From contig JAZDKJ010000006.1 in assembly GCA_043803105.1 (NCBI GenBank), forward strand, positions 364,222 through 428,221: 64,000 nucleotides of DNA. Reading direction: 5' to 3'. The notes beneath the pieces were generated by a model. It was given only the letters and a program-made list of their open reading frames with translations, was not told where the DNA came from and ran no database searches. Shown one piece after another: positions 29,638 to 59,913 of the stretch (the first letter of the stretch is position 1; every line of letters starts with the position of its first letter). Position numbers and translations under genes: made by a program. Source of the DNA: Candidatus Woesearchaeota archaeon (lineage in GTDB: Archaea > Nanobdellota > Nanobdellia > Woesearchaeales > JAZDKJ01).

Positions 29638-29672
29638 GGGGCTGCGGGGGAGCTGCGAAGTCAGCTCGCACC
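29638..29672 (+). ncRNA. Truncated degenerate copy of the tRNA-Pro 5' end plus conserved 23-nt hairpin
   Basis: GGGGCTGCGGGGG compared with the genuine GGGGCTGTGGGGT (U8 replaced by C). The hairpin is GAGCTGCGAAGTCAGCTCGCACC (29650-29672). The leader ACAATCATT matches ACAATCAAT before the real tRNA. Confidence 0.6.
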
Positions 29673-29710
29673 TTCGTGGGACATAAAGTCCCCCTGACAT
29701 CACAATCAAT

Positions 29711-29827
29711 GGGGCTGTGGGGTAGCTTGGTCTAGCCTATCTGGTTTGGGGCAATGCAAAAAACCAGATGACCCCGGTTCGAAAGTTTTATAAAAGGCTG
29801 ATTAACTCGAAAATCCGGGCAGCCCCA
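29711..29827 (+). tRNA. tRNA-Pro: tRNA-Pro(UGG), 117 nt, two introns (12-nt anticodon loop, 30-nt T-loop)
   Basis: Hand parse: GGGGCTG TG GGGT AGCTTGGTCTA GCCT A TCTGG TTTGGG[12 nt] CCAGA TGAC CCCGG TTCGAAA[GTTTTATAAAAGGCTGATTAACTCGAAAAT] CCGGG CAGCCCC A. The mature length is 75 nt. Confidence 0.85.
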
Positions 29828-36889: not shown

Positions 36890-37201
36890 ATGGCGATTTC
36901 TTACAAGCAAAGATGCATGCGGTGCAAAAAGAATATGGTCATGGTGACTTCAAGGACTTTTTTCCCAGTCTGTTACGATTGTGAAAAGAATGATTTGCAT
37001 GGTCTGGTCAAGAACCCTAAGATGAAAAAGCTCTTTAATATTCCAGAATCCTTCTATGTAGAGAATACTTTCCTGCGCTCAATAAAGATCAATTACCTGA
37101 AGTTTGGCAGCCTCTCAGAAAAGCAGATTGCAAGCTTCAAGAAGACTGTGGAAGAGTTAAAGAAAAAACCCGTAAGCCTCATACCCCCCAGACAGGGTTA
37201 G
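36890..37201 (+). CDS. zinc-ribbon protein, hypothetical
   Basis: 103-aa ORF with CMRC...CYDC. Confidence 0.45.
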   Translation: MAISYKQRCMRCKKNMVMVTSRTFFPVCYDCEKNDLHGLVKNPKMKKLFNIPESFYVENTFLRSIKINYLKFGSLSEKQIASFKKTVEELKKKPVSLIPPRQG

Positions 37202-38942
37202 ATTTTCTCATTATTATGGCTATCTCTTTCAAGACCTCAGTCTCTTCACGGCCAAGAAGCTTCCTGTACTCCTTTAGTTTTCGGAAATCATCCTCAGGCA
37301 CCGAGCTGTAAAGTGTGTCTCCTTCTTTTATCTGTCTTCCAACAGTGAGGTGCTCAAGGCTCACCGCAACCTGCTTTCCCCGCTCAGCTTTCTCAAGGTT
37401 TTCCTGCTCTGCTTGTATGCTTTTTATCCTGCTAATCTCCTTGCCTTGCGCGTTCATTACAGGCATTCCTGTTCTTATTGTCCCTGCCTCCACCTCTACT
37501 CCTACTACTGCAGGATTGTTTTGCCTGAAAACATAGCCTTTCATGAGTTTGAATTTTGCCGGCCTGACCACCTTGTCCAGTTCTCCCAGCTCTTGTTTCT
37601 TTGACATCTCCTGTTTCCATGCCTCAAGGTCTTCCAGCAGTTTATAGATTATGTCGTGGACTATCACCTTCACATGGTCCAGGCACAACCCTGATTCGTC
37701 CTTGACATTGAACCCGAGCACCACTGCCATCAGCGGATCTTTTTCATAGTTGCTTTCCGCTTCCATAAGGTCTTTTCTCGTTATCGGCCCAACCCCTGCC
37801 TTTCTTATCTCGACTCCGCCGTCCTTCAGGAGCTTGACCATAGCCTCCATGCTGCCAAGCGTGTCTGCCTTTACTATTATTCCTTCCTTGTTTGTTTCAA
37901 TTAGTGCCTCGCTTATCTCGCGCATTATTTCTCTGCTGGTTTTCTCCAGGTTCTGCTGGCTTGTTGCCCTGATTGGCATTCCTGCTATCGCTGTCTCAAT
38001 GTCCGGTGCAGCAATCTTTACCCCTGTCGCTGCAACTGCTTTTCTGACCTTTGTGTATTTTGCCTTTTTGTCTCGCATCTCTTCAAGTGGCAATGGTTCA
38101 AGAAGAGCCTTAACTTTTGTTATGATGGGTTTCTCTATGCCCCCAATTACTATGATATCATTTACCTTGAGGATCCCATCGTATATGATCACATCGATTG
38201 TTGTACCAAAACCACGTTCCTCCTTCACCTCGAGGATTGTTCCCTTGGCTGGTCCGCTTGCATCAATTTTTAGGTTGGTTTCAAGGTATCTTTGAGCTAG
38301 GCCTGTTAGCATTACGAGGAGTTCTGGTATGCCCTCTCCTGTTTTTGCAGATACTGGGACGATGATTATTTGTTTTGTAAAGTCCTCTACTCTGTCATAT
38401 CTTTCAGAATTAAGGCCGAGCTTGCTTAATTCTCCCAGTATCTGATAGACTCTCTTGTCAAGCTGCTCTTGCACTGAACTGCTCTGCTTGCTTATGTTCT
38501 CCAGCAAATGCTCTGCCTTATGCTGCCAGCCTGCAATTAAGTCTATCTTGTTCGCAGCGACAATAAATGGTGTCTTGCTATGCTTGAGTATCTCTATTGC
38601 CTCGACTGTCTGTGGCTTGAATCCCTCGTTGACATCGATAACCACAATTGCGATGTCAGCTAGGCTGCCTCCTCTCTTTCTTAGGCTTGTGAATGCAGCA
38701 TGCCCTGGAGTGTCAATGAAAAGAAGGCCTGGTATCGTGAATTTTGTGTTGAGCGCTTCCAGCAATGGGCCGCATATCTTCTTTATGACTTCAAGCGGTA
38801 TTATTGAAGCGCCTATTGCCTGTGTTATCCTTCCCGCTTCTGTCTCAACTATGGCAGTGCCCCTGATCTTGTCTAGCAGGCTTGATTTTCCATGGTCCAC
38901 ATGCCCAAGCACTGTGCATATTGGGCTTCTTATCTCTGGCAT
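37179..38942 (-). CDS. infB: translation initiation factor aIF5B
   Basis: 587-aa ORF with GHVDHGKSSLLD, DTPGH and NKID motifs. A TATA box (CTTTAAATAC) lies about 22 nt upstream. Confidence 0.95.
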   Translation of the reverse strand: MPEIRSPICTVLGHVDHGKSSLLDKIRGTAIVETEAGRITQAIGASIIPLEVIKKICGPLLEALNTKFTIPGLLFIDTPGHAAFTSLRKRGGSLADIAIVVIDVNEGFKPQTVEAIEILKHSKTPFIVAANKIDLIAGWQHKAEHLLENISKQSSSVQEQLDKRVYQILGELSKLGLNSERYDRVEDFTKQIIIVPVSAKTGEGIPELLVMLTGLAQRYLETNLKIDASGPAKGTILEVKEERGFGTTIDVIIYDGILKVNDIIVIGGIEKPIITKVKALLEPLPLEEMRDKKAKYTKVRKAVAATGVKIAAPDIETAIAGMPIRATSQQNLEKTSREIMREISEALIETNKEGIIVKADTLGSMEAMVKLLKDGGVEIRKAGVGPITRKDLMEAESNYEKDPLMAVVLGFNVKDESGLCLDHVKVIVHDIIYKLLEDLEAWKQEMSKKQELGELDKVVRPAKFKLMKGYVFRQNNPAVVGVEVEAGTIRTGMPVMNAQGKEISRIKSIQAEQENLEKAERGKQVAVSLEHLTVGRQIKEGDTLYSSVPEDDFRKLKEYRKLLGREETEVLKEIAIIMRKSNPVWGV

Positions 38943-39452: not shown

Positions 39453-39654
39453 TGGGGCTGCTGGGATTTCCATGCTTCTAGGACGGTCTTTTGGCATCAG
39501 CCAAAAGCCTTTTCCCAGGTTTTTGCATATTGCAAAAAGCTGTTTGGACCCAGATTAGGAGGTTTTCCGCTGAAAACCTTAGGTCAAATGCCCCGAACCT
39601 CCAGTGATAGTTTCTCGAAGAGTTTCTCTCTTCTCCAAGTTACACTACAGCCCC
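39453..39654 (-). tRNA. tRNA-Pro: tRNA-Pro(CGG), 202 nt, three introns (D-loop 25 nt, anticodon loop 28 nt, T-loop about 76 nt)
   Basis: GGGGCTG TA GTGT AACTTGG[AGAAGAGAGAAACTCTTCGAGAAAC]TA TCAC T GGAGG TTCGGG[28 nt] CCTCC TAAT CTGGG TCCAAAC[AGCTTTTTGC...GCATGGAAAT] CCCAG CAGCCCC A. Confidence 0.7.
39635..39654 (-). repeat. 20-nt perfect direct repeat, copy 1 (first 20 nt of tRNA-Pro(CGG))
   Basis: GGGGCTGTAGTGTAACTTGG, identical to 41164-41183. The flanking bases differ on both sides. Confidence 0.9.
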
Positions 39655-46206: not shown

Positions 46207-47511
46207 ATGAAAGTCCTTATTGTAGGTTCAGGAGGTCGGGAGCATGCTCTGGCCTGGAAAATAGCCAAAAGTCCGCTGGTTTCTAAGGTATATTGTGCTC
46301 CAGGTAATGACGGAATTTTGCAGACGCCAAAGGCAGATTGTTTCTCAGAAATCAAGGCAACAGATATTGAAGGCCTTGTTTCCCTGGCGAAAAAGAAAGG
46401 TGTTGATTTCACTCTTTTTGGTCCTGAAGATTCTTTGGTCAACGGCGCCTATGACAGGTTCAGGAAAGAAGGCCGTCTTGCTTTAGGCCCTGATAGCTGG
46501 GGAGCTGATATTGAAGGCAGCAAAGCCTGGACAAAGGACTTGATGCAAAACTATGGTATACCTACTGCCTTTGGCCAGTCAACCTCAAGGATTTCACAAG
46601 CTAAGGATATTGCCAAGGAATTTGTGCAGCATTATGGTGGTGTAGTTGTCAAGGCAGATGGGCCTTGTGGCGGAAAGGGAGTTTTTGTATGCAGAACCTT
46701 GCTTGAAGCCATTTTAGCCATAGACCGGATTATGGTCAAGCGAGTCTTTGGCCCTGCTGGAAAGCGAGTTGTCTTGGAAGAACTGCTTGTTGGCGAGGAA
46801 GCATCATTCATGGCATTGGTAAACAGCGTCGAAGATTATATCTTGCCTTTTGCTTCATCGCAAGACCATAAGAGGCGTGATGATGGAGATAAAGGCCCAA
46901 TGACCGGCGGCATGGGTGCTTATTCGCCTGCGCCTGTAGTAACACCTGTAATTCATAAAATGATAATGAAAGACACCTTGTACCAGACTATGCGCGCTAT
47001 GGCTCAGGAAGGCAGGCCTTATGTTGGGGTCATGTATGCTGGCCTAATGATAGTTAAAGGAAAACCAAAGGTGCTGGAATTCAACTGCCGCTTCGGAGAC
47101 CCAGAGATCCAGCCAATACTAATGAGGATGAAACCTGACATTATGCCTTTGCTCATTGGCTGTGCAGAAGGCAACCTCAGAAAACAGACGGTTGAATGGT
47201 ACGACGACGCTGCGGTCTGCGTAGTTATGGCCTCAAAAGGTTATCCTGAATCAGAGCAATTGAGAGGCCAGCAGATTCACGGCCTTGAGGATGTTACACA
47301 CATGGAAAATGTCTATGCCTTCCATGCAGGCACTGCTTACAAGAATGGTGTTTGGACTAATAAGGGTGGCCGTGTCTTAGGTGTAACTGGCAGAGCGCCC
47401 ACCATAAAGGAGGCACAAGACCTTGCCTATGAAGCAGCCAAAATGATTACATTCAATGGTGCTCATTATCGCACTGACATAGGCAATAAAGCAATCCAGA
47501 AAACAGTCTAG
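46207..47511 (+). CDS. purD: phosphoribosylamine-glycine ligase
   Basis: 434-aa ORF: MKVLIVGSGGREHALAWK...NCRFGDPE. Confidence 0.93.
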   Translation: MKVLIVGSGGREHALAWKIAKSPLVSKVYCAPGNDGILQTPKADCFSEIKATDIEGLVSLAKKKGVDFTLFGPEDSLVNGAYDRFRKEGRLALGPDSWGADIEGSKAWTKDLMQNYGIPTAFGQSTSRISQAKDIAKEFVQHYGGVVVKADGPCGGKGVFVCRTLLEAILAIDRIMVKRVFGPAGKRVVLEELLVGEEASFMALVNSVEDYILPFASSQDHKRRDDGDKGPMTGGMGAYSPAPVVTPVIHKMIMKDTLYQTMRAMAQEGRPYVGVMYAGLMIVKGKPKVLEFNCRFGDPEIQPILMRMKPDIMPLLIGCAEGNLRKQTVEWYDDAAVCVVMASKGYPESEQLRGQQIHGLEDVTHMENVYAFHAGTAYKNGVWTNKGGRVLGVTGRAPTIKEAQDLAYEAAKMITFNGAHYRTDIGNKAIQKTV

Positions 47512-47550
47512 TATTGCGAATAACAGAAAAGCAAGTTAGAGGTATCTCAA

Positions 47551-48504
47551 GTGTCTGATAAACTGTTGCTGATTGGTATGGGTTCGCCTAGTGATTTGAA
47601 GCATTTTGAAAAGCCTTATGCAAGCCTTGACGGCACCATCCCGGAATATCTCTTAAAAAAGGGTGTGAGACTATATTTGAGCCCTGGCACAGGAAAGCCT
47701 CTTGTTACCTCAATACATCGCACCACTGATACAGCAATGAAATTTGCAGATTCTCTTGATAGCTTGGTTGCTATAGAAGGAAGAAATGACAGGTTTGTTG
47801 CCTTATTGTTTGGCGGGCTTGCTTTTCATCTTGGTGGGGCTTTTGCTGGAAAGAATCCTGCAATACCGACGATTGTAGCTGCGATGGATGAGCATGCCTT
47901 CATGAGCGCCTATGCTATGCCTAAAGGAACTCCGGTTGGATTGGTTGGAGTCAACCAGCTTGACAAGGCTGTGATGATGGCAACTAAGATTCTTGACTAT
48001 AACGATTCTAACCGAGCATGGATCATACACCATCATTTCACCAATCCTCCATCGACTGATAGGGAGCATCTCGTAAAGTCTTCATATGATGCTGCCACTC
48101 AGCTTCTGCAAAAGTGCAATGTTTTGTCTTGGGCAGTTGAATTTATTTTTGTCGCGCAGAAGAAATATAAAGGTGTTTCATTAAGCCTGCCAGCGCTGCC
48201 ACAAACCGCAATAGAAATGGACAAGAGGTTAATTTTGGGTTCTGTTTCGTTTGTCAATCCTGCTGCGTTAAGTCCTTGCACCACAGGTCAGTATCAGACC
48301 CTCATGGATGTTGCTGGTCAGCTCAAGAACTCTTTGCTGGTCCATGACCCTTACAACGCAGCCCTTTTTACAATCCAGGTTATCGCAAACAAGTATCCAG
48401 ACTTACGTCTTGGGCTTGACAGGATAAAGGAAGAATCGAGGCTGCCGACTGCGAAGGGTGGGTATTCTCAGTTTTTGCCAATAAAAAAGGATGATTTCAA
48501 GTGA
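47551..48504 (+). CDS. purE: PurE-like (AIR carboxylase/mutase fold) protein, double length
   Basis: 317-aa ORF with a GTG start after an SD. Contains IGMGSPSD, TSIHRTTD, GGLAFHLGG and AMPKGTPVG, which are collinear with E. coli PurE motifs as recalled. The C-terminal half resembles a second, weaker PurE-like repeat. Confidence 0.6.
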   Translation: MSDKLLLIGMGSPSDLKHFEKPYASLDGTIPEYLLKKGVRLYLSPGTGKPLVTSIHRTTDTAMKFADSLDSLVAIEGRNDRFVALLFGGLAFHLGGAFAGKNPAIPTIVAAMDEHAFMSAYAMPKGTPVGLVGVNQLDKAVMMATKILDYNDSNRAWIIHHHFTNPPSTDREHLVKSSYDAATQLLQKCNVLSWAVEFIFVAQKKYKGVSLSLPALPQTAIEMDKRLILGSVSFVNPAALSPCTTGQYQTLMDVAGQLKNSLLVHDPYNAALFTIQVIANKYPDLRLGLDRIKEESRLPTAKGGYSQFLPIKKDDFK

Positions 48505-48515
48505 GGTGAAATAAC

Positions 48516-49796
48516 GTGGGCAGTACAAAAGATTTGGTTACTACAGGAAAGCTTGGTGAGCAATGGTATGCGCCTCCAACCGCTGTCAAGTTTGGTTATG
48601 GACCAATGCAGGTAAAAGGAACCTTCTCTGTGGCAGACTTAAAGAAGCTTATTCCTGAGTCTATCATAAAAAACAAGGCAGAAGCCCTTGCCATGCAGCA
48701 GGCAGCATTTGCAGAGTATCTGCAATATAATCACCCTGAGATCCCAAATTCCTATTATGGTATATTGGACAAAGATTTCAAACGTACTGACGTTCAGCAC
48801 TTGTTGTCTAAGGGAGAAACATCGAGCATCGTAGTCATGAAGCTTGCCCACACGCCAGATAGCTTTTGCGAAGGTAACCTTGATAAATATCGGGCTGCCC
48901 TGCAATCAGGAGAATTACAGTGCGGCGTTGCAGACGTGGAGTCAATCTTCAGGCTGGGCTTTCCGCTCGGCAGCTCGACTTTCGAGGATATTTTCAAGGC
49001 TGTCAGGTTAGGAGAAAAGTACGAGCATTTAGCCACTTACAATGAGACTGCGGCCGAACTCGACAAAATCAGGGCTATGGTTTCCGAGCAAGGTCTTGAC
49101 ATCTTCGAAGGTTTGGAGGAATTGCTTCAAAAAAAAGGCCTGGGCACCACTATTCCGAATCCAGGATTTGTCCTCAAGCATTTTGTTTATGATACAACCA
49201 CAAAATTCGTGAGTTACGGCGACCTTAAGATATCTGAGGAAGATGCTGAGAAACTTAGCGGCCTAAGCCATGAGAGTTATCAGCTCTGGAAGAATGACAT
49301 GTTCCCGAAGATTGCTGCTGCGCAGATAAAATTTTGCATGGAAAGGAACATATTCAATATTGATGGCAAGAGTGAAATCGTGGCATACCATCGCATGCCA
49401 GTTGTTGCCGACTTCCAATGCACTGTTGACGAAAACAGGGAAATGATAGTTGTGGCGGTTGACGGGGTTGAATGGCTGATTCCCAGCAATAAGGAAATAC
49501 AGCGGGCGATTTTCAGAAAAGAGGGAGTTTATGCAGCAAAGGCTGAGGCTTTAAGGCGGTCAGTAAAAGACAAAGGAGTCTTTGACCATTGGAAGGAGTA
49601 TTTTCCGGCTGTCATCAAGGAGCGAAAGATTGATTTGGTGGGTGTTACAGAATTCTCGTGTGATTTGATGGCAAATGCAATCATGGAAGTTGCCAACCGG
49701 ACTCTCGGCCATAGGGTGTTTGATGCAAAGCCGCTTGACTCGTGGGTTAGAGACTTTGTTCCTTATGCTAGTAAGTTACAAAGGCAAGGTGATTAA
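48516..49796 (+). CDS. purC: SAICAR-synthetase-like protein (divergent, long)
   Basis: 426-aa ORF with an N-terminal GSTKDL...FSVADL and a later IDGKSEIV...VADFQCTVDENR that resemble PurC motifs. Operon context. Confidence 0.5.
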   Translation: MGSTKDLVTTGKLGEQWYAPPTAVKFGYGPMQVKGTFSVADLKKLIPESIIKNKAEALAMQQAAFAEYLQYNHPEIPNSYYGILDKDFKRTDVQHLLSKGETSSIVVMKLAHTPDSFCEGNLDKYRAALQSGELQCGVADVESIFRLGFPLGSSTFEDIFKAVRLGEKYEHLATYNETAAELDKIRAMVSEQGLDIFEGLEELLQKKGLGTTIPNPGFVLKHFVYDTTTKFVSYGDLKISEEDAEKLSGLSHESYQLWKNDMFPKIAAAQIKFCMERNIFNIDGKSEIVAYHRMPVVADFQCTVDENREMIVVAVDGVEWLIPSNKEIQRAIFRKEGVYAAKAEALRRSVKDKGVFDHWKEYFPAVIKERKIDLVGVTEFSCDLMANAIMEVANRTLGHRVFDAKPLDSWVRDFVPYASKLQRQGD

Positions 49797-49798
49797 GA

Positions 49799-51751
49799 AT
49801 GGGGCATGTTTTGTTCGGTCGTTATCCAAGCAAGGAGATGAAGGAAATCATCGGTCCTCAACCCAAGGATTACAGGACGCTTTGCTCTCCTGATATGGAA
49901 AATATTTTCTCCAAGGAGTCAAAACATAATGGTTGGGATGACGTTTGGTATGCCCATATGAAAGCACAAAAAGAAACAGGCCTGCCAATACCGCAGGAGC
50001 ATTTGGATGCCTTCCAAGTTATTCTACACAAGATTAATTATCAACGCATGGATGAGATTGAACGAATCCTGAAGCATGATGTTGATTCTGGCAGGAAGCA
50101 TCGTGCTGAAGAATTGGAGAAGGTGTTGGAAGGCTCTTCCGCATGGCTGCATGCTGGTGCAACTAGCTGCACGGTCACAGATAATCAGGAGCTTACTGCA
50201 ATGTATAACGGCTTGCAGCTCTTGGCAGACAAAGGATACAATCTCCTTAACAAGCTTGAGCGTTTTGATTCTGGTCTGATTGTTAACCAGCACAAGTCAG
50301 ATCTAGAATATGCCTTGAATATATTAGACAGCAGGATCAACAACTTCAAGATAAGAGGTGCAAAAGGCACCACAGGCACCCAGGCAAGCTATCTCGAGCT
50401 GTTTGATGGCAATGCAGAAAAGGTCAGCGCTTTCGAACAAGCCTTCATCCAAAGACTTGGGTTTGGTAGGGCATTCACGATAACCGGTCAGACCTATCCA
50501 CGGATTGCGGATTACCAGCTCGTATCAACCTTGGGCGTGCTTGCGACTGCGCTTTCAAACATTGCAGAGTACTCAGTCAGCTTTTCCGAAGAATTAGCTC
50601 ATCCTTTGTCTGATGTGAAGAGCTTTGCAAAAAGCGCTGCGCACATGGCATCCAAGCAGTGGTTGGAGCGAACACTAGATGACTCTGCCCAGAGACGGAT
50701 TATCATCGAAGATTCCTTCAAGGCAGTTGAGTATGTTCTGGATAGGCTGAACTCTGCAGAAATTAACCCGATAGAGATAAGGGACCCTGACTTTCAGCTA
50801 AGCCAGCCATTGTCAGAAACGCTTGAAGGCACTACAGGCAAGGCTCTTGAGCTGTTGCGTGACAAGACTGTGAATACAATTTTCAGAATTCACACATTTG
50901 CAGAGAAGTTCAAGGACCAGCCTTGCATGGCATACACTCATTATCAGGTTGCCCAGCCTACAACTGTAGGCAAGCGGCTTGACCTTTGGGCCTATAATTA
51001 TGTTTTGGCACTTCAGGACATTGAAGACTTTTTGGAGTCTGACAAGAACCTTGAAGTAAGCCAGAATATTGTTGAATATCGCATCGCCACACTGTTAACA
51101 CAGATTGCGGTTGCTGCCCATAAGCAAGCCGCAGATGTCAGGTTGTGCCAGCATGACGGGATAATGACTGAGCCTTTTGCAATTGGCCAAAAAGGTTCAA
51201 GTGCTATGCCTCATAAGCGCAATCCTATGAAGAATGAGCGCATCTGTTCTCTATCTACAGAGTTGATTCAGTATGCTGATTCCAATAATGCCAACCCTTA
51301 TAGCTTTTTGCTAGCTGACTCAGTCTTGAATCTTGCAATGGCTGTTTTTGTTGAGGATACTCCTAAACAAAAGGGCTTTACTGTTAACCCAGAGGTTATT
51401 GCAAAGAATTTCAGGGAATTTCTGCCATATATCTGCCTAGAGCAACTGGTTAACAAAGTGCTCAAGACAGGAAAATACAAGCGCGAGGAGCTGTATGACA
51501 TCGCTTACAATTGCTCAATACAGGCCCGAACCAATGTCGAGGTACACGGCAAGGCAAACAACACGCTTGAATTAGTGTGCGAATACCCTCAATTTGGGCT
51601 CACTCCAGAAATGATTCCTGCGATGCTTGATCCTATGCTCTATATCGGTCTAGCGTCAAAACAGGTAGAATTGTTTGGAAGGGTGCATGTGGACCCCTTG
51701 AAAGAGAAGTACAAATCTGTTCAGGCGTTAGAGTCTGACGTGAAAGTTTAA
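49799..51751 (+). CDS. purB: adenylosuccinate lyase (long form)
   Basis: 650-aa ORF with an N-terminal RYPSKEM and the fumarate-lyase signature GSSAMPHKRNP. Confidence 0.8.
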   Translation: MGHVLFGRYPSKEMKEIIGPQPKDYRTLCSPDMENIFSKESKHNGWDDVWYAHMKAQKETGLPIPQEHLDAFQVILHKINYQRMDEIERILKHDVDSGRKHRAEELEKVLEGSSAWLHAGATSCTVTDNQELTAMYNGLQLLADKGYNLLNKLERFDSGLIVNQHKSDLEYALNILDSRINNFKIRGAKGTTGTQASYLELFDGNAEKVSAFEQAFIQRLGFGRAFTITGQTYPRIADYQLVSTLGVLATALSNIAEYSVSFSEELAHPLSDVKSFAKSAAHMASKQWLERTLDDSAQRRIIIEDSFKAVEYVLDRLNSAEINPIEIRDPDFQLSQPLSETLEGTTGKALELLRDKTVNTIFRIHTFAEKFKDQPCMAYTHYQVAQPTTVGKRLDLWAYNYVLALQDIEDFLESDKNLEVSQNIVEYRIATLLTQIAVAAHKQAADVRLCQHDGIMTEPFAIGQKGSSAMPHKRNPMKNERICSLSTELIQYADSNNANPYSFLLADSVLNLAMAVFVEDTPKQKGFTVNPEVIAKNFREFLPYICLEQLVNKVLKTGKYKREELYDIAYNCSIQARTNVEVHGKANNTLELVCEYPQFGLTPEMIPAMLDPMLYIGLASKQVELFGRVHVDPLKEKYKSVQALESDVKV

Positions 51752-53220
51752 TGCGACCACTAAAAAACGAGCCTTCAAGGAGCTTGAAGGAGTACAGGCT
51801 TCTTACAGGCAGGACTACTGCTAAGACTGTTATGTCTTCTGTCAATCTCAGGACAAGACTCTGCACGAGTCCTAATGGCAAGGACTTTCTCTATCTGAAC
51901 ATTCCATTGATGAGCGCAGCAATGCAGGCTGTTTCAGGAACAAGGTTATCTGTTGCGCTTGCACAGTTTGGAGGCATTTCTGTTTTGCCGTGCTCTATTC
52001 CGGTTCAGGAGCAGGTTGCAATAATCAAGGAAGTGAAGCGCTTCAAGGCAGGCTTCCAGGAGGATGTGACAACCTTTTCCAAGGATGACCTGATTGCCGA
52101 TGCTGTTAAGGTAATGAGTACAAAAGGCTATCACACTTTTCCCATAACAGAAAATGGGAGATCGCACGGGAGGCTCCTTGGCATATTATCAGACAGGAAT
52201 TTTGACCCCAAAGAGCACGTAAAGAATAAGATCGAGAAACACATGGTGAAGAATGTTGTGACAGCAAGGGAGGGCATTTCATTGCCTGATGCAAACAAGG
52301 TGATGATAAAATACGGCAGGAGCATACTACCTATTGTTGACTCAAGGAAAAACCTACGATACGTTGTCTTCAAGAAAGACCTGGAAAAGCACAGGAACTT
52401 TCCTGATGAGCTCGTCGACCATAACAAGCGCTATATGATCGCTGCAGCAGTCTCGACCTTGCCTAGTGACCACTCAAGGATTGATGCCCTGATTAAGGCA
52501 GGAGTTGATGCCTTGATCATTGATTCCTCCGATGGTTTTTCTGATTTCCAAATTGAGACCTTGAGCTATATCCGTAATAAAACAAGGAAGATTCCGGTGA
52601 TTGGGGGAAATATAATCACTAAAGAAGGCTTTTTTCACTTGGCTGAAGCTGGTTTTGATGCAGTTAAGGTCGGAATGGGAATTGGTTCTGGCTGCACGAC
52701 ACAAGAGCAGAAAGGTGTTGGTCGAGGCCAGGCTTCTGCCTTGATTGATGTCTGCGCTGCTCGCGACGAGTTTTATTCAAACACCAACAGATATCTTCCA
52801 ATAATTTCTGATGGCAGCATTTCAAATCCTGGCCAGATTGTAATTGCCTTGGCTCTAGGCGCAGATTCTGTCATGATGGGTCGGTTCTTTGCCCAATTCT
52901 CCGAGTCTGAAGGCGGTGTGAGGAATCATCCTCAATACGGTCCATTGAAAGAATTCTGGATGGAAGCCTCTGCCAGGGCGAGGAGTTATGGCCGCTATGA
53001 AACCAAGCCAGAATTCTTTTTTGAGGAAGGTGTCGAAGGCTATGTTCCGCACATTGGATCAATCTATGATAATCTCGGCCAGACTTTGATCAAGATAAAG
53101 TCTGCCTTGTCCAATGCTGGCTGCAAGAATATAGATGAATTGCACAAGACTGCAGTGCTTGAATTGCAATCAATAGCATCATTGCAGGATGCTGCAGTGC
53201 ATGATATTATAACTAAGTGA
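51751..53220 (+). CDS. guaB: IMP dehydrogenase (with CBS pair)
   Basis: 489-aa ORF with IDSSDG, GIGSGCTTQ and ISDGSI motifs, plus a CBS insert. Confidence 0.85.
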   Translation: MRPLKNEPSRSLKEYRLLTGRTTAKTVMSSVNLRTRLCTSPNGKDFLYLNIPLMSAAMQAVSGTRLSVALAQFGGISVLPCSIPVQEQVAIIKEVKRFKAGFQEDVTTFSKDDLIADAVKVMSTKGYHTFPITENGRSHGRLLGILSDRNFDPKEHVKNKIEKHMVKNVVTAREGISLPDANKVMIKYGRSILPIVDSRKNLRYVVFKKDLEKHRNFPDELVDHNKRYMIAAAVSTLPSDHSRIDALIKAGVDALIIDSSDGFSDFQIETLSYIRNKTRKIPVIGGNIITKEGFFHLAEAGFDAVKVGMGIGSGCTTQEQKGVGRGQASALIDVCAARDEFYSNTNRYLPIISDGSISNPGQIVIALALGADSVMMGRFFAQFSESEGGVRNHPQYGPLKEFWMEASARARSYGRYETKPEFFFEEGVEGYVPHIGSIYDNLGQTLIKIKSALSNAGCKNIDELHKTAVLELQSIASLQDAAVHDIITK

Positions 53221-53230
53221 GGTGTCATAA

Positions 53231-54643
53231 ATGGGTTTTTCAGAATTGGTGTCAGGTAAGCAGACAATTGCTATTGTTTGCAATCAATGGGGTGATTCAG
53301 GCAAGGGAAAGTTTGTCCACTTGTTTAGCGAGTGGGCTGACATTATCGCACGTGGTACTGGAGGTCCGAATGCAGGTCATACTGTTGTAATAAACGACAA
53401 GACATACATCTTCCACACGATCCCTTCTGGAATTTTGTATGACTGCGCTGGAAAGACTAATGTGATGGGACCTGGAATGGTTATTGATTTGAAAGGCCTT
53501 GGTGAAGAGTTGGACACGCTTGACAAAGAGCGTGCCTCATATAATCACTTGGTTATCAGCAATGCAGCAAATGTGATTTTGCCCCAGCACAAGATTCGAG
53601 ATGGTGCTGCTTTCGCATCCATGGCCAAAGGGTCTGTTGGTTCAACCGGCCGAGGCATCGGCCCTTGCTATGCTGATGCGACTGCCAGAACAGGAATTAC
53701 CTTAGCAGATCTGTTTGACAAAGATATATTGGCAAAGAAATTGAGGGAAAACCTCAAGAACTATCCTGATTTGGTTGACAAGCTAGACGTGGACGAGATT
53801 ATTGAAGAGCAGCTCAAACATTTTGAAAGAATAAGACCTTTTGTCCGCGAAACGCATTATCTTATGAACGAGTCCCTTGCTGCAGGAAAGAAGATCCTCC
53901 TGGAAGGTGCACAGGGATTATTGCTGAGCATAATGTTTGGTACCACACGATATCAGACCAGCTCTGATTGCTCTATTATCGGAACAGCTCAAGGTGTAGG
54001 CCTGAATCCAGCAGTCGTTGACTTAACTCTTGGGATAGTCAAGGCACCTTATATGACTCGTGTTGGCAACGGCCCATTCCCTACTGAGTTTGGAGGAGTA
54101 CTGGCTGAAGAGTATTGTGCAGATGTGAGCCACAACAAGAAGGTTGAACTGGCAAATTACAATCTTGAAGCGCTTCTACGCTCTCCACGCGAGTTCGACC
54201 AGGGGTTATATGCGAGAATTAAAGGAAATGAGTATGGGGCCACCACTGGCCGTCCAAGGAGAACCGGATGGATTGACTTGGTTGCCCTTCGCTATGCTGC
54301 CATGATTAACAAGAGCGCAAAGGCGAAAAGGGCTGATGTTATCATAACAAAGCCCGATGTGATGGATGAGTTTGACAAGATAAAATTATGTGTTGGCTAC
54401 ACCCTTGGGGGTGTGATCACCACCAGGTTCCCGCACCGTTCTGAACTGCTTGAACAATGTGCACCTATTTACGTAACCATGGACGGGTGGAAGACCCCAA
54501 TAAGCGACTTCAGGGATTACAATGAAATAAAGAGGAAAGCGCCAAACCTTGCCAACATTCTGTTCTTCATTGAAGAATATGCTGGTGTTAATATCAGGAG
54601 CGTATCTGTTGGCGCTGATAATGACCAAACAATCTTTAGGTGA
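53231..54643 (+). CDS. purA: adenylosuccinate synthetase
   Basis: 470-aa ORF with QWGDSGKGKF, GPNAGHT, TGRGIGPCY and GATTGRPRR motifs. Confidence 0.92.
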   Translation: MGFSELVSGKQTIAIVCNQWGDSGKGKFVHLFSEWADIIARGTGGPNAGHTVVINDKTYIFHTIPSGILYDCAGKTNVMGPGMVIDLKGLGEELDTLDKERASYNHLVISNAANVILPQHKIRDGAAFASMAKGSVGSTGRGIGPCYADATARTGITLADLFDKDILAKKLRENLKNYPDLVDKLDVDEIIEEQLKHFERIRPFVRETHYLMNESLAAGKKILLEGAQGLLLSIMFGTTRYQTSSDCSIIGTAQGVGLNPAVVDLTLGIVKAPYMTRVGNGPFPTEFGGVLAEEYCADVSHNKKVELANYNLEALLRSPREFDQGLYARIKGNEYGATTGRPRRTGWIDLVALRYAAMINKSAKAKRADVIITKPDVMDEFDKIKLCVGYTLGGVITTRFPHRSELLEQCAPIYVTMDGWKTPISDFRDYNEIKRKAPNLANILFFIEEYAGVNIRSVSVGADNDQTIFR

Positions 54644-54652
54644 GGTGTAAAA

Positions 54653-55426
54653 ATGCAAAAAACTTTAATGGATGTTTTAAAAGATTTTCCCTATCTAGGG
54701 AGGTTTGTTCTTATAGGCGTTGACCTCACAGATACATTTAATTTTATAGCCTGTGGCATCCAGGGTCGAAGCCCGCCAAGTAGAGAAAGGTATTATGAAG
54801 AAAGCACTGACAGGAAGACTCTCTCTGTAAAACCTCTTGCGTATGACAAGATGGTCCGTGAATTCCAGGGAGGCAACCTTAGCGCCAATCCAGAACTTCT
54901 GTTATACAATGTGATAAAAGCTCACCTGACCGGCGTTGCAGTCAGCAACGGAAAACAGACTGATTCGATTGCTGACCTTATACAACCTGGCCAAAAGCCA
55001 AAATCCATTCTTGAAAGAGGCTTATCCAATTGGAGTTATGAATCTGATCCTCCAAATAACACTCCAAGAGTTAACGGGGTGGTGAATGATAATCAGGCAT
55101 GCTTGGCAATTCTGAAAAAGGACAAGGATGGATCACGATTGCCACTATATTTTAACGTCCCGATGACAAGAGGCAGAGGCATGTTACTCCCAACTTATAC
55201 AGGGGTTAATATGAATCCTCTTCCTTCGTTTCAAGGCGAGCCTCTGGAATTGGAGCTCACTGCCACAACCCCAACTGAGATGGTGCTTATGCTTTATGGT
55301 GCCTTAGTGCCACAGTCAGGAGATGATTTACGCGTTGCTGTCGGAGCAATGTTCCAGAACAGGATGGACTTTTCCACAATGCTCTACAGCAAGAGCCGTT
55401 ACGAAAAACCAGTCGAGGTGAAATAA
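54653..55426 (+). CDS. purO: IMP cyclohydrolase, archaeal PurO type
   Basis: 257-aa ORF with YLGRFVLIG...GRSPPSR...AVSNGKQTD...TPR, collinear with PurO as recalled. Confidence 0.7.
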   Translation: MQKTLMDVLKDFPYLGRFVLIGVDLTDTFNFIACGIQGRSPPSRERYYEESTDRKTLSVKPLAYDKMVREFQGGNLSANPELLLYNVIKAHLTGVAVSNGKQTDSIADLIQPGQKPKSILERGLSNWSYESDPPNNTPRVNGVVNDNQACLAILKKDKDGSRLPLYFNVPMTRGRGMLLPTYTGVNMNPLPSFQGEPLELELTATTPTEMVLMLYGALVPQSGDDLRVAVGAMFQNRMDFSTMLYSKSRYEKPVEVK

Positions 55427-55427
55427 G

Positions 55428-56891
55428 ATGGCAGCAATGCGAGAAGAGAAGCAGAAGTATTTCAACAGGATGCAGGATAATTTCCCGCAAGCACTCCTGG
55501 TTGGCTTCGCTGATTTGGATGCATCCAAAATACTGGCTGTCAACGTCTCACACCTCAACCAACATGGAGAAACCATAGAGACGACTCTCCAGCCATTAGC
55601 CTACCGCAAAGTGACTTGGACTCTTCCTAATGCAAAAGGTGAGTTGGAAGAGATGGGTTTGCGTTACGGAGACAATCCTGACCAAAAATCTGCTATGTTC
55701 AAATTAGTGGGAGGAAATCTTGCTCTTGCAGCCTGTAAGTTTGTTGGAGCAAATAACGGGCTTGTAAGTGCAATAACTGAGGCTGACATGATCCAAGCAG
55801 GTAAGCATCCAGGTAAAACAAACCTTACTGATGTGGATTCCGCGCTGAATATACTTAGGTATTTGGGTGAAAAACCGGCATGCGCTATAATGAAGCACAA
55901 CAATCCCTCCGGCTTAGCCTATGGAGGTTCTTCTGAAGTGACAGGTGCTGCCTTCGGGTCTGACGTCTCCGAAGCATACAGGAAGGCAAATGATGCTGAC
56001 AGGATAGCTGCTTTTGGTGGGGCTGCTGTTTTCAATAAGCCCATAGATACAGTCACAGCAGAAATGATTAATCGCAATTACCTGGAGGTGGTCTGTGCCC
56101 CGGACTTTGAAAGAGGTGCTGTTGAAATCCTTAAGGGTAGGAAGAACTTGAGAATAATTCGCTTGGACAATATCAATCGCCTAGAGAATTATTCAACCAC
56201 CCAGATTATTGATTTTAAGGCATTGATGGATGGTGGGTTCATAGTCCAGGAGTCCCAGGTGAATAAGGTTCGTTCATTGGCAGACCTGAAAAGAGCCAGT
56301 CACAAAGGTTATCAGACAGAACGGTGGCCCCCAGACCCCAACGAAGTTAGGGACATGATTTTTGGTGTGGCAGTAGAGTGTGGGGTTACATCAAACTCTG
56401 TCCTTTACGTTAAGGACGAAACAACAGTATCTGTTGGGACAGGTCAGCAGGACAGGCTTGATGTTACAGTCTATGCCATAGCTAAAGCGTATAGAAAGCG
56501 CCGTGACAGGGAATGTTTCAAAGAGTTTGGTATTCCCTATCCAGCGCTTGAAACAATGATATTTCACAAAGAGCAAGGCATAGACAGGGATTATGGAAGC
56601 ACTGCGGTCAATAACGCTAACCTGAACGGAGTTGGTATGCTAAGAGAGTGGAAAAAAGAGATAGATGCAAGAGTCAACAGTATACATGGTGGATTGATTG
56701 GCGCGACAAAGGTTTCAGACGCTTTCTTCCCTGAGCCTGACGCCATCGATTACTCGCTTATGGAATTCATTTCCGCAGTTGTGCATCCCGAAGGTTCGGA
56801 TAAGGATTGGGCTACCATTGATGCCTGCAATAAGGCTAAGCCGAGGCCAGTTATTGTGGCGCATACAACTCAGAGATTGTTCAAGCACTGA
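55428..56891 (+). CDS. purH: AICAR transformylase (PurH AICARFT domain only)
   Basis: 487-aa ORF with LRYGDNPDQ, MKHNNPSG and AAFGGAAVFN motifs. Confidence 0.85.
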   Translation: MAAMREEKQKYFNRMQDNFPQALLVGFADLDASKILAVNVSHLNQHGETIETTLQPLAYRKVTWTLPNAKGELEEMGLRYGDNPDQKSAMFKLVGGNLALAACKFVGANNGLVSAITEADMIQAGKHPGKTNLTDVDSALNILRYLGEKPACAIMKHNNPSGLAYGGSSEVTGAAFGSDVSEAYRKANDADRIAAFGGAAVFNKPIDTVTAEMINRNYLEVVCAPDFERGAVEILKGRKNLRIIRLDNINRLENYSTTQIIDFKALMDGGFIVQESQVNKVRSLADLKRASHKGYQTERWPPDPNEVRDMIFGVAVECGVTSNSVLYVKDETTVSVGTGQQDRLDVTVYAIAKAYRKRRDRECFKEFGIPYPALETMIFHKEQGIDRDYGSTAVNNANLNGVGMLREWKKEIDARVNSIHGGLIGATKVSDAFFPEPDAIDYSLMEFISAVVHPEGSDKDWATIDACNKAKPRPVIVAHTTQRLFKH

Positions 56892-56893
56892 GA

Positions 56894-57850
56894 ATGTTAA
56901 ACAACAAAACCCTCGAGTCAGCCCTGTCAATACTTGGCTCTCTTGGTCCAGGACCTGCCTGCCTTATCTATAATGATGGCATGCTCTCGAGTGCTGCATG
57001 CAGCATTTCTGCTGCTGACGCTTTCGAGAAGGCTCGTGATAGTTGCTGGACAGGAACCATTGCAGGCTCTGCATTCTTCAACAGGCCTCTGTGCTTGGAC
57101 ACAGCTAAAATGATTGAAGAGACTGATCTTCTTCAGGTGTACGCTCCTTCATTTGATGATAAGGCAGTGAAGGTTTTAGAGAAGAAGACGATGGTTCCAA
57201 TAAACCTCAATAAAGCGCCAAACACAATTCAACTAATTTGCTTGAATAAGCGGAATAGTCAGTTGCGCACTTCTTTTTCTGCTCAGCAAAATGATTTGTA
57301 CTTGGCCATTGCGTGCATGCAAGATACGCCATCCCGTGCCCTGGTATTAGCCAAGGAAAGCAAGACTGCCGCGATTGTTGCGTCTGAAACACTGGAGGAT
57401 TGTGCTTTGCTTGCGTTGAGGGACGCAGGGAGAAACTATAAGAACATGATTTGTTACAATGATTACCATCTCTCCTATGACTTTCTTGAAAGCAGCATCT
57501 CCTGCGTCGCCCTCAGAGTGATTACAGAGCCAGAGGCAATTGCCAAAATTGAGGATATACAAGCAAGGAGTAAGATCATTGGTGGTGCTGTTAAGGTAGA
57601 AAAGCTTAGTGTAATGGACACCATAAACAAGCTTGCCAATCAAGACAGGTCGGGTCTTAATTACGCTGTTGCAGTCACCAAATGCGAATTTGACATGGCC
57701 ACCCTTAGCTTTCTTGCTGACAAAGGCATAATTGCTGTGGCACAGCCAAGCCATAATCCTGAGATTGAAAAAGGATGCCGTAAATTAGACCTTACTTTGT
57801 TGCTCTATCACATTAATGAAAAGCCAAAATGCTGCGAGGTGCGAATATGA
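56894..57850 (+). CDS. AICARFT-like paralog lacking the KHxNPxG motif
   Basis: 318-aa ORF. AADAFEKARDSCWTGTIAGSAFFNRPLCLDTAKMIEE...VYAPSFDDKAVKVLEKK aligns with the PurH core, but the position of the KH.NP motif reads IYNDGML. Confidence 0.6.
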   Translation: MLNNKTLESALSILGSLGPGPACLIYNDGMLSSAACSISAADAFEKARDSCWTGTIAGSAFFNRPLCLDTAKMIEETDLLQVYAPSFDDKAVKVLEKKTMVPINLNKAPNTIQLICLNKRNSQLRTSFSAQQNDLYLAIACMQDTPSRALVLAKESKTAAIVASETLEDCALLALRDAGRNYKNMICYNDYHLSYDFLESSISCVALRVITEPEAIAKIEDIQARSKIIGGAVKVEKLSVMDTINKLANQDRSGLNYAVAVTKCEFDMATLSFLADKGIIAVAQPSHNPEIEKGCRKLDLTLLLYHINEKPKCCEVRI

Positions 57851-58884
57851 ATGATAAAAAAGAATTTATGACTTACAAAGGTTCAGGTGTGGATGTTGAA
57901 AAAGGTGAGGCTGTTGCAAAAAATCTGGAGGAAGAATTGGGCTCGACTCTTAACGACCATGTGGTTCCAGGAAAGTCTGGATTCAAGAGGTTTTGGAGGG
58001 ACGAAAATCATACTTATGTTGCAGGTGCTGACGGTGTTGGAACAAAGCTCAAGGTTGGATTCTTGCTAAAAAAGATTGACACTGTAGGCATAGACCTGGT
58101 TGCAATGTGCATTAACGATATTGTCAGGGTGGGTGCAGAGCCAATGTTCTTTCTTGATTATCTTGCTACCGGTAAATTGGATGAAGGTGACCATCTTAAG
58201 ATTGTCAGTGGAATCGTAGAAGGCTGCAGGCGTGCAGGGGTTCCTTTGCTGGGAGGCGAGACTGCTGAACTGCCAGGGTTCTACTCGCCTAAAGAATTTG
58301 ATCTTGCAGGTTTTGCAGTTGGCAGAGCGAAACACCAAGATCTGATTGACGGCACCAATATAAAGGTTGGGGCTGCGCTTTTAGGCATTGAGTCATCAGG
58401 CCTGCACAGCAATGGCTACTCTTTGGCGAGAAAGGTGCTTATGGAAAAGCTAGGCCTTGGAATGTTTGATTATGTGGCCAAGCTTAGGTGCACAGTTGGA
58501 CAAGAGCTGATAAGGTCAACCATCATCTACTCCAAGCCAGTTCTTGATCTACTGAGTCACTTTCCTGGCCAGGTTCAGGGAATGGCTCATGTTAGTGGAG
58601 GAGGTATGCCAAACAAGGTTCCAAAATGTTTTCCTGAAGGCTGCGGCGCAGTCATAAATGAGGGCAGCTGGCCTGTGCATCAGATTTTCTCGTACATTGC
58701 AGAGAACGGCCCAGTTGCACCTGAGGAAATGAGAAGGACCTTCAACATGGGTATTGGTATGGTTATGGTAATAAACGACAAGGGTGTGGTGCCAGAGATA
58801 TCTTCGCTTTTGTTGGAAAGCCACAAACTCAAGAGTTATGACATAGGCAACATTGTTGCTGGCAGAGGATTGCAGTATATCTAG
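57847..58884 (+). CDS. purM: phosphoribosylformylglycinamidine cyclo-ligase (AIR synthetase)
   Basis: ATG at 57847 after a GAGGTG SD, with an ATGA overlap with the previous gene. Contains YKGSGVDV, DGVGTKL and GGETAE motifs. Confidence 0.92.
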   Translation: MNDKKEFMTYKGSGVDVEKGEAVAKNLEEELGSTLNDHVVPGKSGFKRFWRDENHTYVAGADGVGTKLKVGFLLKKIDTVGIDLVAMCINDIVRVGAEPMFFLDYLATGKLDEGDHLKIVSGIVEGCRRAGVPLLGGETAELPGFYSPKEFDLAGFAVGRAKHQDLIDGTNIKVGAALLGIESSGLHSNGYSLARKVLMEKLGLGMFDYVAKLRCTVGQELIRSTIIYSKPVLDLLSHFPGQVQGMAHVSGGGMPNKVPKCFPEGCGAVINEGSWPVHQIFSYIAENGPVAPEEMRRTFNMGIGMVMVINDKGVVPEISSLLLESHKLKSYDIGNIVAGRGLQYI

Positions 58885-58905
58885 CACCAAACCTTTTTAA
58901 AGCAA

Positions 58906-59913
58906 GTGCCTTATCGGGCTTTTATGTTCTTAGACAGATTGGGCAAGGTTGAGCACTCCAAGTTCTATGTAGAGCTTGCTATAAGGCACGCTAATGCGCG
59001 ATGCAAGCTCTTGAAGCAGAAACTGCCTGTCAAGGAACGCCTGCTAAGGGAGAAAAAGGTTGGCTCTTACAGGCTGCAGATGATTGACAAGTATTTGGGA
59101 GCAGAGCTTAACAGGCTCATAGCCTGCTTTCCAGACTTTGAGTCTATTCCTGTCTTCTACCTTGAGCTTGTCAAGCTCACAACAGATTATGAGGCGACAA
59201 CGTCAGCATTAAAAAAGCTTGATTGGCTGAGAAGAAGCACGCGCTCATTGGCTAAGGCATATATTGACAGGATTTCAAAACGTAATGACATTAAATTTAT
59301 TCTCTCCAGCGAGAAAGCATTTTATGGCAGGCTTTTCGGCTTAGCAAGGAAGGTCGACCCTAGCTTAGAAGTCCTTGAGACGGTTAGGAAGGTCATGAGA
59401 GAATACCCTGTTGTAAAGACCTCGTTGTTCACTGTTGCTATTGCAGGCTTTCCAAATGTCGGCAAGACCACTCTGCTTTTCAAGCTGACAGGTTCACAGC
59501 CAGAGATAAAGAACTATGCCTTCACAACAAAAGGCATCAACACTGCTTACATGTCTTTTGAGTCAAGGAAGGTTCAGCTTCTTGACACCCCCGGCACTTT
59601 GGACAGGATTGAGAAGATGAACAATCTTGAAAAACAGTCTTTCCTTGCAATACAGCATCTTGCAAACTGCATAGTCTATGTTTTTGATGTTACAGAATCT
59701 TATCCTCTTGATGACCAGATAAAGCTTTACCTCAGGTTAAAGGAGCTTGACAAGCCGATGATTGTGTATGCCTCAAAGACTGACATTTCCAAGGATAACC
59801 TTGCACTGCTTTCAGATTATGAGCCGATCACTGACTTACAGATTCTTCAGGAAAAGTTGAAATCCTTGGCAGAAAAATCCGATATTCTGCCACCGCCATC
59901 TTCAGATTCTTAG
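58906..59913 (+). CDS. NOG1-type GTPase
   Basis: 335-aa ORF with an N-terminal NOG1-like helical domain, followed by GFPNVGKTTLL, DTPG and SKTD motifs. Confidence 0.8.
   Translation: MPYRAFMFLDRLGKVEHSKFYVELAIRHANARCKLLKQKLPVKERLLREKKVGSYRLQMIDKYLGAELNRLIACFPDFESIPVFYLELVKLTTDYEATTSALKKLDWLRRSTRSLAKAYIDRISKRNDIKFILSSEKAFYGRLFGLARKVDPSLEVLETVRKVMREYPVVKTSLFTVAIAGFPNVGKTTLLFKLTGSQPEIKNYAFTTKGINTAYMSFESRKVQLLDTPGTLDRIEKMNNLEKQSFLAIQHLANCIVYVFDVTESYPLDDQIKLYLRLKELDKPMIVYASKTDISKDNLALLSDYEPITDLQILQEKLKSLAEKSDILPPPSSDS

Follow-up and report, generated by a model that had tools for sequence, protein, structure and literature searches.

A tRNA-Pro(CGG) gene of a Woesearchaeota archaeon with C55 in the putative splice helix of its T-loop intron

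Why does a tRNA gene with all of its stems intact have a C at position 55, where the T-loop of an elongator tRNA has a nearly invariant U? The question is raised by a tRNA-Pro(CGG) gene in a 64,000-nucleotide stretch of the genome of a Candidatus Woesearchaeota archaeon (GenBank assembly GCA_043803105.1, contig JAZDKJ010000006.1, positions 364,222 to 428,221 of the forward strand; G+C content ~44%); this whole stretch is the window in what follows, and positions are given in its own numbering. The T-loop of the gene is interrupted by an intron between nucleotides 59 and 60 (59/60), and T-loop introns of this kind, with a bulge-helix-bulge (BHB) motif, are textbook for Crenarchaeota. Our answer, which we consider probable, is that the gene is transcribed and spliced, with three BHB introns, and that its C55 is not a sign of decay but the exon base of a C-G pair in the T-loop splice helix, fixed for the stability of this helix. 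According to the literature, no tRNA modification is more universally conserved than pseudouridine 55 (PMC7912444, PMC1616971).

The tRNA-Pro(CGG) gene occupies 39453..39654 on the minus strand (202 nucleotides including the discriminator A73) and gives a spliced product of 74 nucleotides, GGGGCTGTAGTGTAACTTGGCTATCACTGGAGGTTCGGGACCTCCTAATCTGGGTCCAAATCCCAGCAGCCCCA, for which ARAGORN draws a tRNA-Pro(cgg) cloverleaf. Our approach for splicing such genes in silico is to enumerate BHB-like motifs, remove up to three of them together and submit the product to ARAGORN as a full-length tRNA; the exons defined by BHB-guided splicing and ARAGORN are 39654-39635, 39610-39592, 39563-39543 and 39466-39453. 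The spliced tRNA has a 7-bp acceptor stem, 5-bp anticodon and T stems, G18-G19, G53-C61, U54, C56 and A58; it departs from a canonical elongator tRNA in having C (window 39547) for U at position 55, as do two of its orthologs and one tRNA-Lys described below.

All three introns are on the minus strand. The D-loop intron (24 nucleotides after G19; 39634-39611, gene nucleotides 21-44) has 3 of 4 central pairs, an exon-side helix of 3 bp and an intron-side helix of 6 bp, and its removal leaves the D-loop sequence AACTTGG|CTA that is also found in intron-less metagenome homologues (e.g., L105 and L120; ortholog and homologue loci are designated by L and a number). The canonical intron between nucleotides 37 and 38 (37/38; 28 nucleotides, 39591-39564, gene nucleotides 64-91) has the central helix UUCG:CGGA with all four pairs, an exon-side helix of 5 bp (the anticodon stem) and an intron-side helix of 1 bp; it is missing from the ortholog in L082, in which TTCGGGA is uninterrupted. 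The T-loop intron at 59/60 (76 nucleotides, 39542-39467, gene nucleotides 113-188) has all four central pairs, an exon-side helix of 5 bp and, in strict register, no intron-side pair. The exon strand of its central helix is U54-C55-C56-A57 (39545..39548) and the intron strand is UGGA (39469..39472), in which the G at 39470 pairs with C55; the adjoining 3′ bulge is A39468, A39467 and, across the junction, U60 (39466). We also looked for, and rejected, a nested exon or a different splice register by which the T-loop would regain UUC: the insert contains no TTCRA, and all BHB-compatible products retain C55.

The geometry that we propose for the T-loop insert is drawn by analogy with that of the anticodon loop. 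The T-stem would be the outer (exon) helix; nucleotides 54-57 and the four intron bases n-5 to n-2, in an intron of n nucleotides, would form the 4-bp central helix; and the two 3-nucleotide bulges would be A58-A59-i1 on the 5′ side and i(n-1)-i(n)-U60 on the 3′ side. The archaeal splicing endonuclease would cut after nucleotide 59 and before nucleotide 60, and ligation of the exons would give the 74-nucleotide tRNA. An earlier reading of the window, made from its letters without database searches (the sequence-only reading), had noticed an insert in the T-loops of five tRNA genes and placed it directly after a 7-nucleotide loop; the inserts are real, but the BHB cuts locate the intron at 59/60, one nucleotide within the loop. 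The T-loop of the tRNA-Pro(CGG), read at that time as TCCAAAC, is therefore U54-C55-C56-A57-A58-A59-U60 (UCCAAAU) in the mature molecule, since nucleotide 60 follows the intron; the C at position 55 is unaffected by this correction.

The pairings of nucleotides 54-57 that were given for the five genes are exact on re-reading: TCCA:TGGA for Pro(CGG), TTCG:CGAA for Pro(UGG), TTCA:TGGA for Asp (with U55 opposite G, a U-G pair), TTCG:AGAA for Lys (3 of 4 paired) and TTCA:TGAA for a Phe-like gene. The 3-nucleotide flanks also match (AAC, AAA or AAT on the 5′ side and AAT or AGT on the 3′ side), and the 3′ strand of the T-stem comes next. The chance that a random 4-mer pairs in this fixed register, at the base composition of the window, is 0.007 for Pro(CGG), 0.026 for Pro(UGG), 0.015 for Asp, 0.20 for Lys and 0.015 for the Phe-like gene, with a product below 1e-8. 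The unconstrained minimum free energy (MFE) structure of the 202-nucleotide Pro(CGG) precursor contains the T-stem, the 4-bp helix and the 3-nucleotide 3′ bulge, and it also reproduces the acceptor stem and the D-stem (-77.5 kcal/mol; z = -4.9, equalled by 0 of 200 shuffles).

If C55 belongs to a functional tRNA, it should be retained by relatives of this archaeon. Ortholog contigs were chosen by an aIF5B that is 69-73% identical to that of the window (gene at 37179-38942, minus strand), with the same tRNA gene upstream of aIF5B or nearby, and a scan of metagenomes with the 5′ exon (GGGGCTRTAGTGTAACTTGG) adds 44 further loci. A scan of genome contigs with aIF5B returned only relatives with ≤61% identity and no orthologous tRNA, and four more loci with aIF5B homologs (L130-L134) contain no tRNA genes. 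The spliced tRNA-Pro(CGG) is identical at 74 of 74 positions in the window, in L083 (whose aIF5B is 73% identical to that of the window) and in L094. In all three genes nucleotides 54-59 are TCCAAA and C55 is opposite G; the intron strand and 3′ bulge are TGGA and AA|T in the window, TGGA and AT|T in L083, and TGGG and AG|T in L094. In L082, which represents a sister lineage, and in L098 the sole difference is U55 (73/74 identities for L082), and this U is paired with an A of the intron (TTCAAA, TGAA, AA|T); the gene in L084 also has a U55:A pair (TTCGAA, CGAA, AG|T).

Outside the exons these genes have changed a great deal. The lengths of the introns in the window, L083 and L094 are 24, 50 and 49 nucleotides (D-loop), 28, 69 and 22 nucleotides (37/38) and 76, 94 and 80 nucleotides (T-loop), and their pairwise identities are 32-80%; invariant exons beside diverging introns and proteins imply purifying selection on the whole tRNA, including C55. 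In a pseudogene the exons would drift neutrally and stems or splice motifs would be lost; Pro(CGG) retains every stem and each of its three BHB motifs. C55 is found in three independent assemblies (an NCBI metagenome-assembled genome, a Logan assembly of a Sequence Read Archive run and a Joint Genome Institute metagenome), so it is not a sequencing error. The preference of the sequence-only reading for a functional, spliced gene over decay thus draws support from exon conservation, intact BHB motifs and orthologs.

The ~75 nucleotides immediately upstream of the gene (window 39729-39655, minus strand; L082:8344-8418; L083:1-73) are conserved above the level of the introns (ATCGCAACCTTTTTAACACCCTGCTGTTTAGC ... 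CAGTGTGGCTTTCCAGTTCAACCTAT), which implies a putative TATA-like box ~70 nucleotides upstream and a conserved leader of ~45 nucleotides; this region is absent from L094 and L084.

Does the partner of nucleotide 55 change with it? We collected 34 distinct T-arms with a 59/60 intron from genes for Pro-CGG, Pro-UGG, Pro-GGG, Asp and Lys in the window, in the ortholog loci and in five orthologous Tyr-Asp-Lys clusters reached via RpoB'' homologues. Each T-arm is represented by 29 nucleotides in which the two strands of the T-stem enclose nucleotides 54-59, three bases and then the final nine bases of the intron, and U60. In this set 94.1% of the central-helix cells are paired, compared with 65% and 54% after a shift of the partner columns by one, and the covariation score is 0.538, as opposed to 0.206 +/- 0.021 in shuffles (0/500 as high). 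The position-55 pair is never unpaired (0/34): it is U-A in 28 T-arms, C-G in four and U-G in two. The position-57 pair is A-U in 19, G-C in seven and something else in eight; the unpaired cases are mostly in the Lys clade, with G57 opposite A or G. The 3′ bulge is AAU, AGU, AUU, CGU or CAU in 34/34 T-arms, always ending in U60 and always followed immediately by the 3′ strand of the T-stem. The two U-G cases (the window Asp gene and the Pro(UGG) gene of L082) are the intermediates expected between U-A and C-G. The sequence-only reading had stated that the intron partner of C55 changed in step with it; the window by itself could not establish this, since its Asp gene already has TGGA opposite U55, but the orthologs do, with the helix conserved among them and C55 and its partner covarying.

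C55 also occurs in a second isoacceptor. The RpoB'' encoded by L099 is 76% identical to that of the window, the gene order Asp-Lys-RpoB'' is retained, and the tRNA-Lys(UUU) gene of this locus (L099:3198-3287) reads GCGAG TCCGAA|..AGGA AG|T CTCGT, that is, it has a C55:G pair in the helix UCCG:AGGA; the spliced gene is accepted as tRNA-Lys by ARAGORN. Six Lys orthologs (that of the window and five others) have TTCG with A opposite U55, and the C55 of the L099 gene is a second, independent origin. At the same loci C55 is present in 4/33 T-loops with a 59/60 intron and in 0/38 intron-less T-loops, all of which have U55 (one-sided Fisher p = 0.042); this association between C55 and the intron is suggestive, with four genes that represent two independent events only.

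What would be gained by a C-G pair at this position? We calculated the ViennaRNA ensemble for the T-arm with its intron and averaged the probabilities of its four central pairs as the measure of helix occupancy. For the window T-arm the predicted value is 0.81 with the native C55:G pair, 0.04 when C55 is changed to U and 0.25 with a U55:A pair; the corresponding values are 0.91, 0.13 and 0.60 for L083, 0.65, 0.08 and 0.51 for L094, and about 0.93, 0.03 and 0.09 for the L099 Lys T-arm. In the window context the MFE structure retains the BHB with C55:G only. These predictions suggest a mechanism in which the central helix, which would otherwise contain just one G-C pair, faces competition from the long, structured, A/U-rich introns and is rescued by another such pair. 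The C-G pair at position 55 would have replaced an ancestral U-A pair, probably via a U-G intermediate, and C55 would have been fixed because it stabilizes the splice helix and is tolerated by the mature tRNA; it would also rule out pseudouridine at position 55.

Several observations weigh against this explanation. Splicing and the mature C55 tRNA are read from genes, the helix-occupancy argument is a thermodynamic prediction, and C55 has arisen in few independent events. The strict-register intron-side helix of the T-loop introns has 0-2 bp, so the motif is weak on the side of the 5′ bulge; the 6-bp intron helix of Pro(CGG) comes after an A.A mismatch, the MFE structure of this gene shows a 4-nucleotide loop, and the motif fits the relaxed hBH-like type (class in PMC5829648). 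Such a relaxed motif would need a broad-specificity endonuclease, and a Pfam scan of 10 window open reading frames (ORFs) found no domain of EndA, nor any of RtcB or a pseudouridine-55 synthase. The contact of U55 with G18 and its stacking on U54 lead one to expect a less stable elbow with C55 (PMC7912444), and the mature C55 sequence has a near-isoenergetic misfold in silico (-33.1 kcal/mol). The window covers 64 kb of a 542-kb contig, and a second, canonical Pro(CGG) gene may be located elsewhere.

The gene could instead be a decaying pseudogene in which C55 is a random hit, the work being done by a canonical tRNA-Pro(CGG) or, by wobble, by the tRNA-Pro(UGG). C55 does violate a near-universal rule (PMC7912444, PMC1616971), degenerate genes that resemble tRNA genes are found in the window (the Phe-like gene and, at 41183-41075, a truncated Pro-like one), and a tRNA-Pro(UGG) gene is present in the 64 kb that we can see. 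Decay is nevertheless very unlikely: the exons are identical at 74/74 positions in three lineages with introns that are 32-80% identical, position 55 alone separates the U55 sister, the three BHB motifs are intact, the partner of C55 is always G, and the upstream promoter/leader region is conserved. CCG accounts for 17% of the proline codons in the window ORFs, so a reader of CCG has work, although tRNA-Pro(UGG) might cover this codon. Nor do we give any credence to a chance match or an assembly artefact; the helix is only 4 bp long, but this reading is refuted by the fixed-register probabilities of the five window genes and by the recurrence of the pattern, with compensatory changes, in 34 T-arms of independent assemblies.

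The direction of causality could also be reversed, with selection for C55 acting on the mature tRNA (for example, through escape from pseudouridylation or a changed elbow) and the intron G following to preserve the splice helix. The covariation is equally compatible with this order of events, and C55 has been kept over a long divergence; still, we judge it unlikely because C55 is found only with a 59/60 intron (4/33 vs 0/38), arose in two unrelated isoacceptors (Pro-CGG and Lys-UUU) and is accompanied by U-G intermediates, whose existence points to a path in which an A to G change in the intron precedes U55 to C and pairing is never broken. C-to-U editing is known in archaeal tRNA, where CDAT8 of Methanopyrus kandleri acts on C8. 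A deaminase that converts C55 to U after splicing, with pseudouridine then formed, would allow both a strong C-G splice helix in the precursor and a canonical loop in the mature tRNA; to our knowledge, however, editing at tRNA position 55 has never been described, and this scheme, which requires an additional unobserved component (no deaminase candidate was seen, and none was sought), is highly improbable. Fixation of C55 for the stability of the splice helix is thus the explanation that we favor.

The intron itself belongs to a known kind. The site 59/60 is listed among the non-canonical archaeal intron sites with BHB or relaxed hBH/HBh' motifs, introns at this site are described mainly in Crenarchaeota/Thermoproteales and Nanoarchaeota, and both multi-intron genes and sets of similar introns inserted at different sites are known from Thermoproteales and Nanoarchaeota (PMC4090602, citing Marck and Grosjean, 2003 and Sugahara, 2008 for the distribution). 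The woesearchaeal introns share with these systems the site, the T-stem as outer helix, the central helix between nucleotides 54-57 and the intron, the 3-nucleotide bulges with their cut sites, and the occurrence of genes with two or three introns. They differ in that the host is a member of the Woesearchaeota (DPANN) with a mesophile-like genome of roughly 44% GC, in that 59/60 is the dominant site (5/6 window tRNA genes and every Asp and Lys ortholog examined), and in that the exon strand of the helix is altered at the near-invariant position 55. DPANN archaea, including a Woesearchaeota genome, have been reported to encode an alpha4 endonuclease with an L3 loop and to show a marked rise in disrupted tRNA genes (Kaneta et al., 2018; PMC5829648); such endonucleases would be the enzymes expected to cut relaxed BHB motifs outside the anticodon loop in Woesearchaeota, and with none among the 10 ORFs scanned, the match between substrate and enzyme is one that we infer.

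C55 has a precedent in the laboratory. U55C mutants with the same T-loop context (oligonucleotide GGGTCCAAATCCCGG) were made by Roovers et al. (2006) in mapping pseudouridine-55 synthases, and formation of pseudouridine at position 55 was abolished in the engineered substrate (PMC1616971); the woesearchaeal C55, unlike that construct, occurs naturally, is conserved and is linked to a base of the intron. Our full-text literature searches, which were partly aimed at position 55 and limited in extent, returned the engineered mutant only and no natural C55. A conserved, recurrent C55 that is coupled to an intron therefore appears to be new. If the mature tRNAs are active, they would provide natural test cases for the need for U55 and pseudouridine 55 in elbow stability and in recognition by modification enzymes and the ribosome; these archaea would supply natural tRNAs without pseudouridine 55, and a structural requirement of an intron would be seen to feed back on the sequence of the mature RNA at a 'universal' position. 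The broader proposal, that the needs of the splice helix overrode U55 repeatedly (at least twice, in the Pro-CGG clade and in one Lys-UUU gene) and that the resulting tRNAs function in translation without pseudouridine 55, we advance tentatively and with some doubt.

The T-loop introns of the three C55 tRNA-Pro genes (window 39467-39542, minus strand; L083:74-359; L094:1334-1557) are homologous and, together with the anticodon-loop intron of L083, constitute a family. In its layout two U/A-rich hairpins, the first of the form GC-U5-7/A5-7-GC, are separated by the spacer CCUGGG(G)AAAA; in the window the two hairpins are accompanied by the spacer CCUGGGAAAA. The anticodon-loop and T-loop introns of the L083 gene share CAGCTTTTTTT..GCAAAAAAACCTGGGAAAAAGCTTT with the window T-loop intron, so one type of intron is present at two positions of the same gene. 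RNAalifold on four related introns was uninformative (poor alignment). The pattern resembles the intron transposition of Thermoproteales, in which, as far as the review relates it, near-identical introns occur at different positions and in different tRNAs (Fujishima et al., 2010, via PMC4090602); it differs in the phylum, in the intron family and in the presence of related sequences upstream of tRNA genes as leader modules.

Genes of this design are easily overlooked. In the raw 64-kb window ARAGORN finds 0/6 tRNA genes and Rfam 1/6, even at E <= 10; the sole Rfam match at gathering score is Tyr(GUA) at 7559-7433, with a 57-nucleotide intron. A stem scan (a T-arm and a complementary acceptor stem, with an insert in the T-loop permitted, the candidates then being read) followed by BHB-guided splicing recovers Pro(CGG), Pro(UGG), Asp(GUC), Lys(UUU) and the Phe-like gene; all six genes have introns. 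Since standard finders miss all or most such genes, the 'missing' tRNAs of DPANN genomes may often be of this kind. Mis-annotation is illustrated by L002 (17203-17086, minus strand), in which ARAGORN calls a 74-nucleotide intron-less tRNA-Pro, although perfect acceptor pairing occurs only 44 nucleotides further on; the 59/60 intron of this gene begins with CCCGGCAGCC, which mimics the 3′ strands of the T-stem and acceptor stem.

The tRNA-Pro(UGG) gene (29711..29827, plus strand) has a 12-nucleotide 37/38 intron (29751-29762) and a 30-nucleotide 59/60 intron (29784-29813). On the minus strand, tRNA-Asp(GUC) (7225-7060) has a 52-nucleotide 37/38 intron (7185-7134) and a 39-nucleotide 59/60 intron (7112-7074), and tRNA-Lys(UUU) (7044-6918) has introns in the D-loop (13 nucleotides, 7024-7012), at 37/38 (12 nucleotides, 6993-6982) and at 59/60 (28 nucleotides, 6959-6932); the D-loop splice of the Lys gene was placed by comparison with its L099 ortholog, which lacks a D-loop intron. 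Each of the three spliced products, Pro(tgg), Asp(gtc) and Lys(ttt), forms a full cloverleaf in ARAGORN, and intron-less homologues share the junction sequences.

The Phe-like (GAA) gene (39242-39089, minus strand) has a 16-nucleotide 59/60 insert (39118-39103) and, as read, 5/7 acceptor pairs and 2/5 T-stem pairs. Its 3′ acceptor strand (ACCGGGC) is a near direct copy of the 5′ strand (GCCGGGC), not its complement, and ~80 nucleotides of additional hairpins are located between the anticodon arm and the T-loop. A separate 3′ half (GCCCGGCR) was considered and rejected, the single match in the window being in a coding region without a T-arm. The gene may be a pseudogene or may contain further non-canonical inserts, and we count it as weak support for the T-loop design. 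A truncated tRNA-Pro-like gene at 41183-41075 (minus strand) has a 5′ exon identical to that of Pro(CGG), a D-loop insert, the anticodon loop TTGAGGA (GAG, one base off the GGG of Pro), the 5′ strand of the T-stem and TTCGAAA; no 3′ strand of the T-stem or acceptor stem is found within the following 700 nucleotides, and it is probably a pseudogene broken within its T-loop intron.

Some tRNA genes are preceded by structured modules. Directly upstream of tRNA-Tyr is a module of ~120 nucleotides (window 7679-7560, minus strand; also L136:2065-2184 and, in two tandem copies, L135:~1805-2062) that matches no Rfam family. It opens with a copy of the first 15-18 nucleotides of the tRNA (CCCTGAGTAGCTCAATAG in the window, CCCCGTG.. 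and CCCCGCG.. in relatives) that remains complementary to the 3′ acceptor strand of the gene in each lineage, and four hairpins with compensatory changes follow; since the TATA box is found before the upstream copy, the module probably represents a long 5′ leader. Similar elements are found before Pro genes (window 29638-29710, plus strand, and 41330-41184, minus strand; L083:~13220-13088, minus strand); in them 7-17 nucleotides of the 5′ exon (GGGGCTG..) are repeated ahead of a hairpin-GCACC motif (GAGCTG-NGAAGT-CAGCTCGCACC), which also opens the T-loop intron of the Pro(CGG) gene of L082. We considered the repeated 5′-exon copies at 29638 and 41330 as BHB introns, but no register gives an acceptable motif; these elements are not ordinary introns, and partial duplication and intron-derived insertion are candidate origins.

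Two further features of the window lie outside its tRNA genes. A sub-threshold Rfam match to SNORD29, a C/D-box small nucleolar RNA (11905-11968, plus strand; 31.4 bits, E = 0.031), may represent an archaeal C/D-box small RNA. At 46207-59913 (plus strand) is a run of same-strand ORFs with N-termini that, by eye, resemble purine-biosynthesis enzymes (e.g., MKVLIVGSGGREHALAWK at 46207), which, if true, would be unusual in a DPANN genome.

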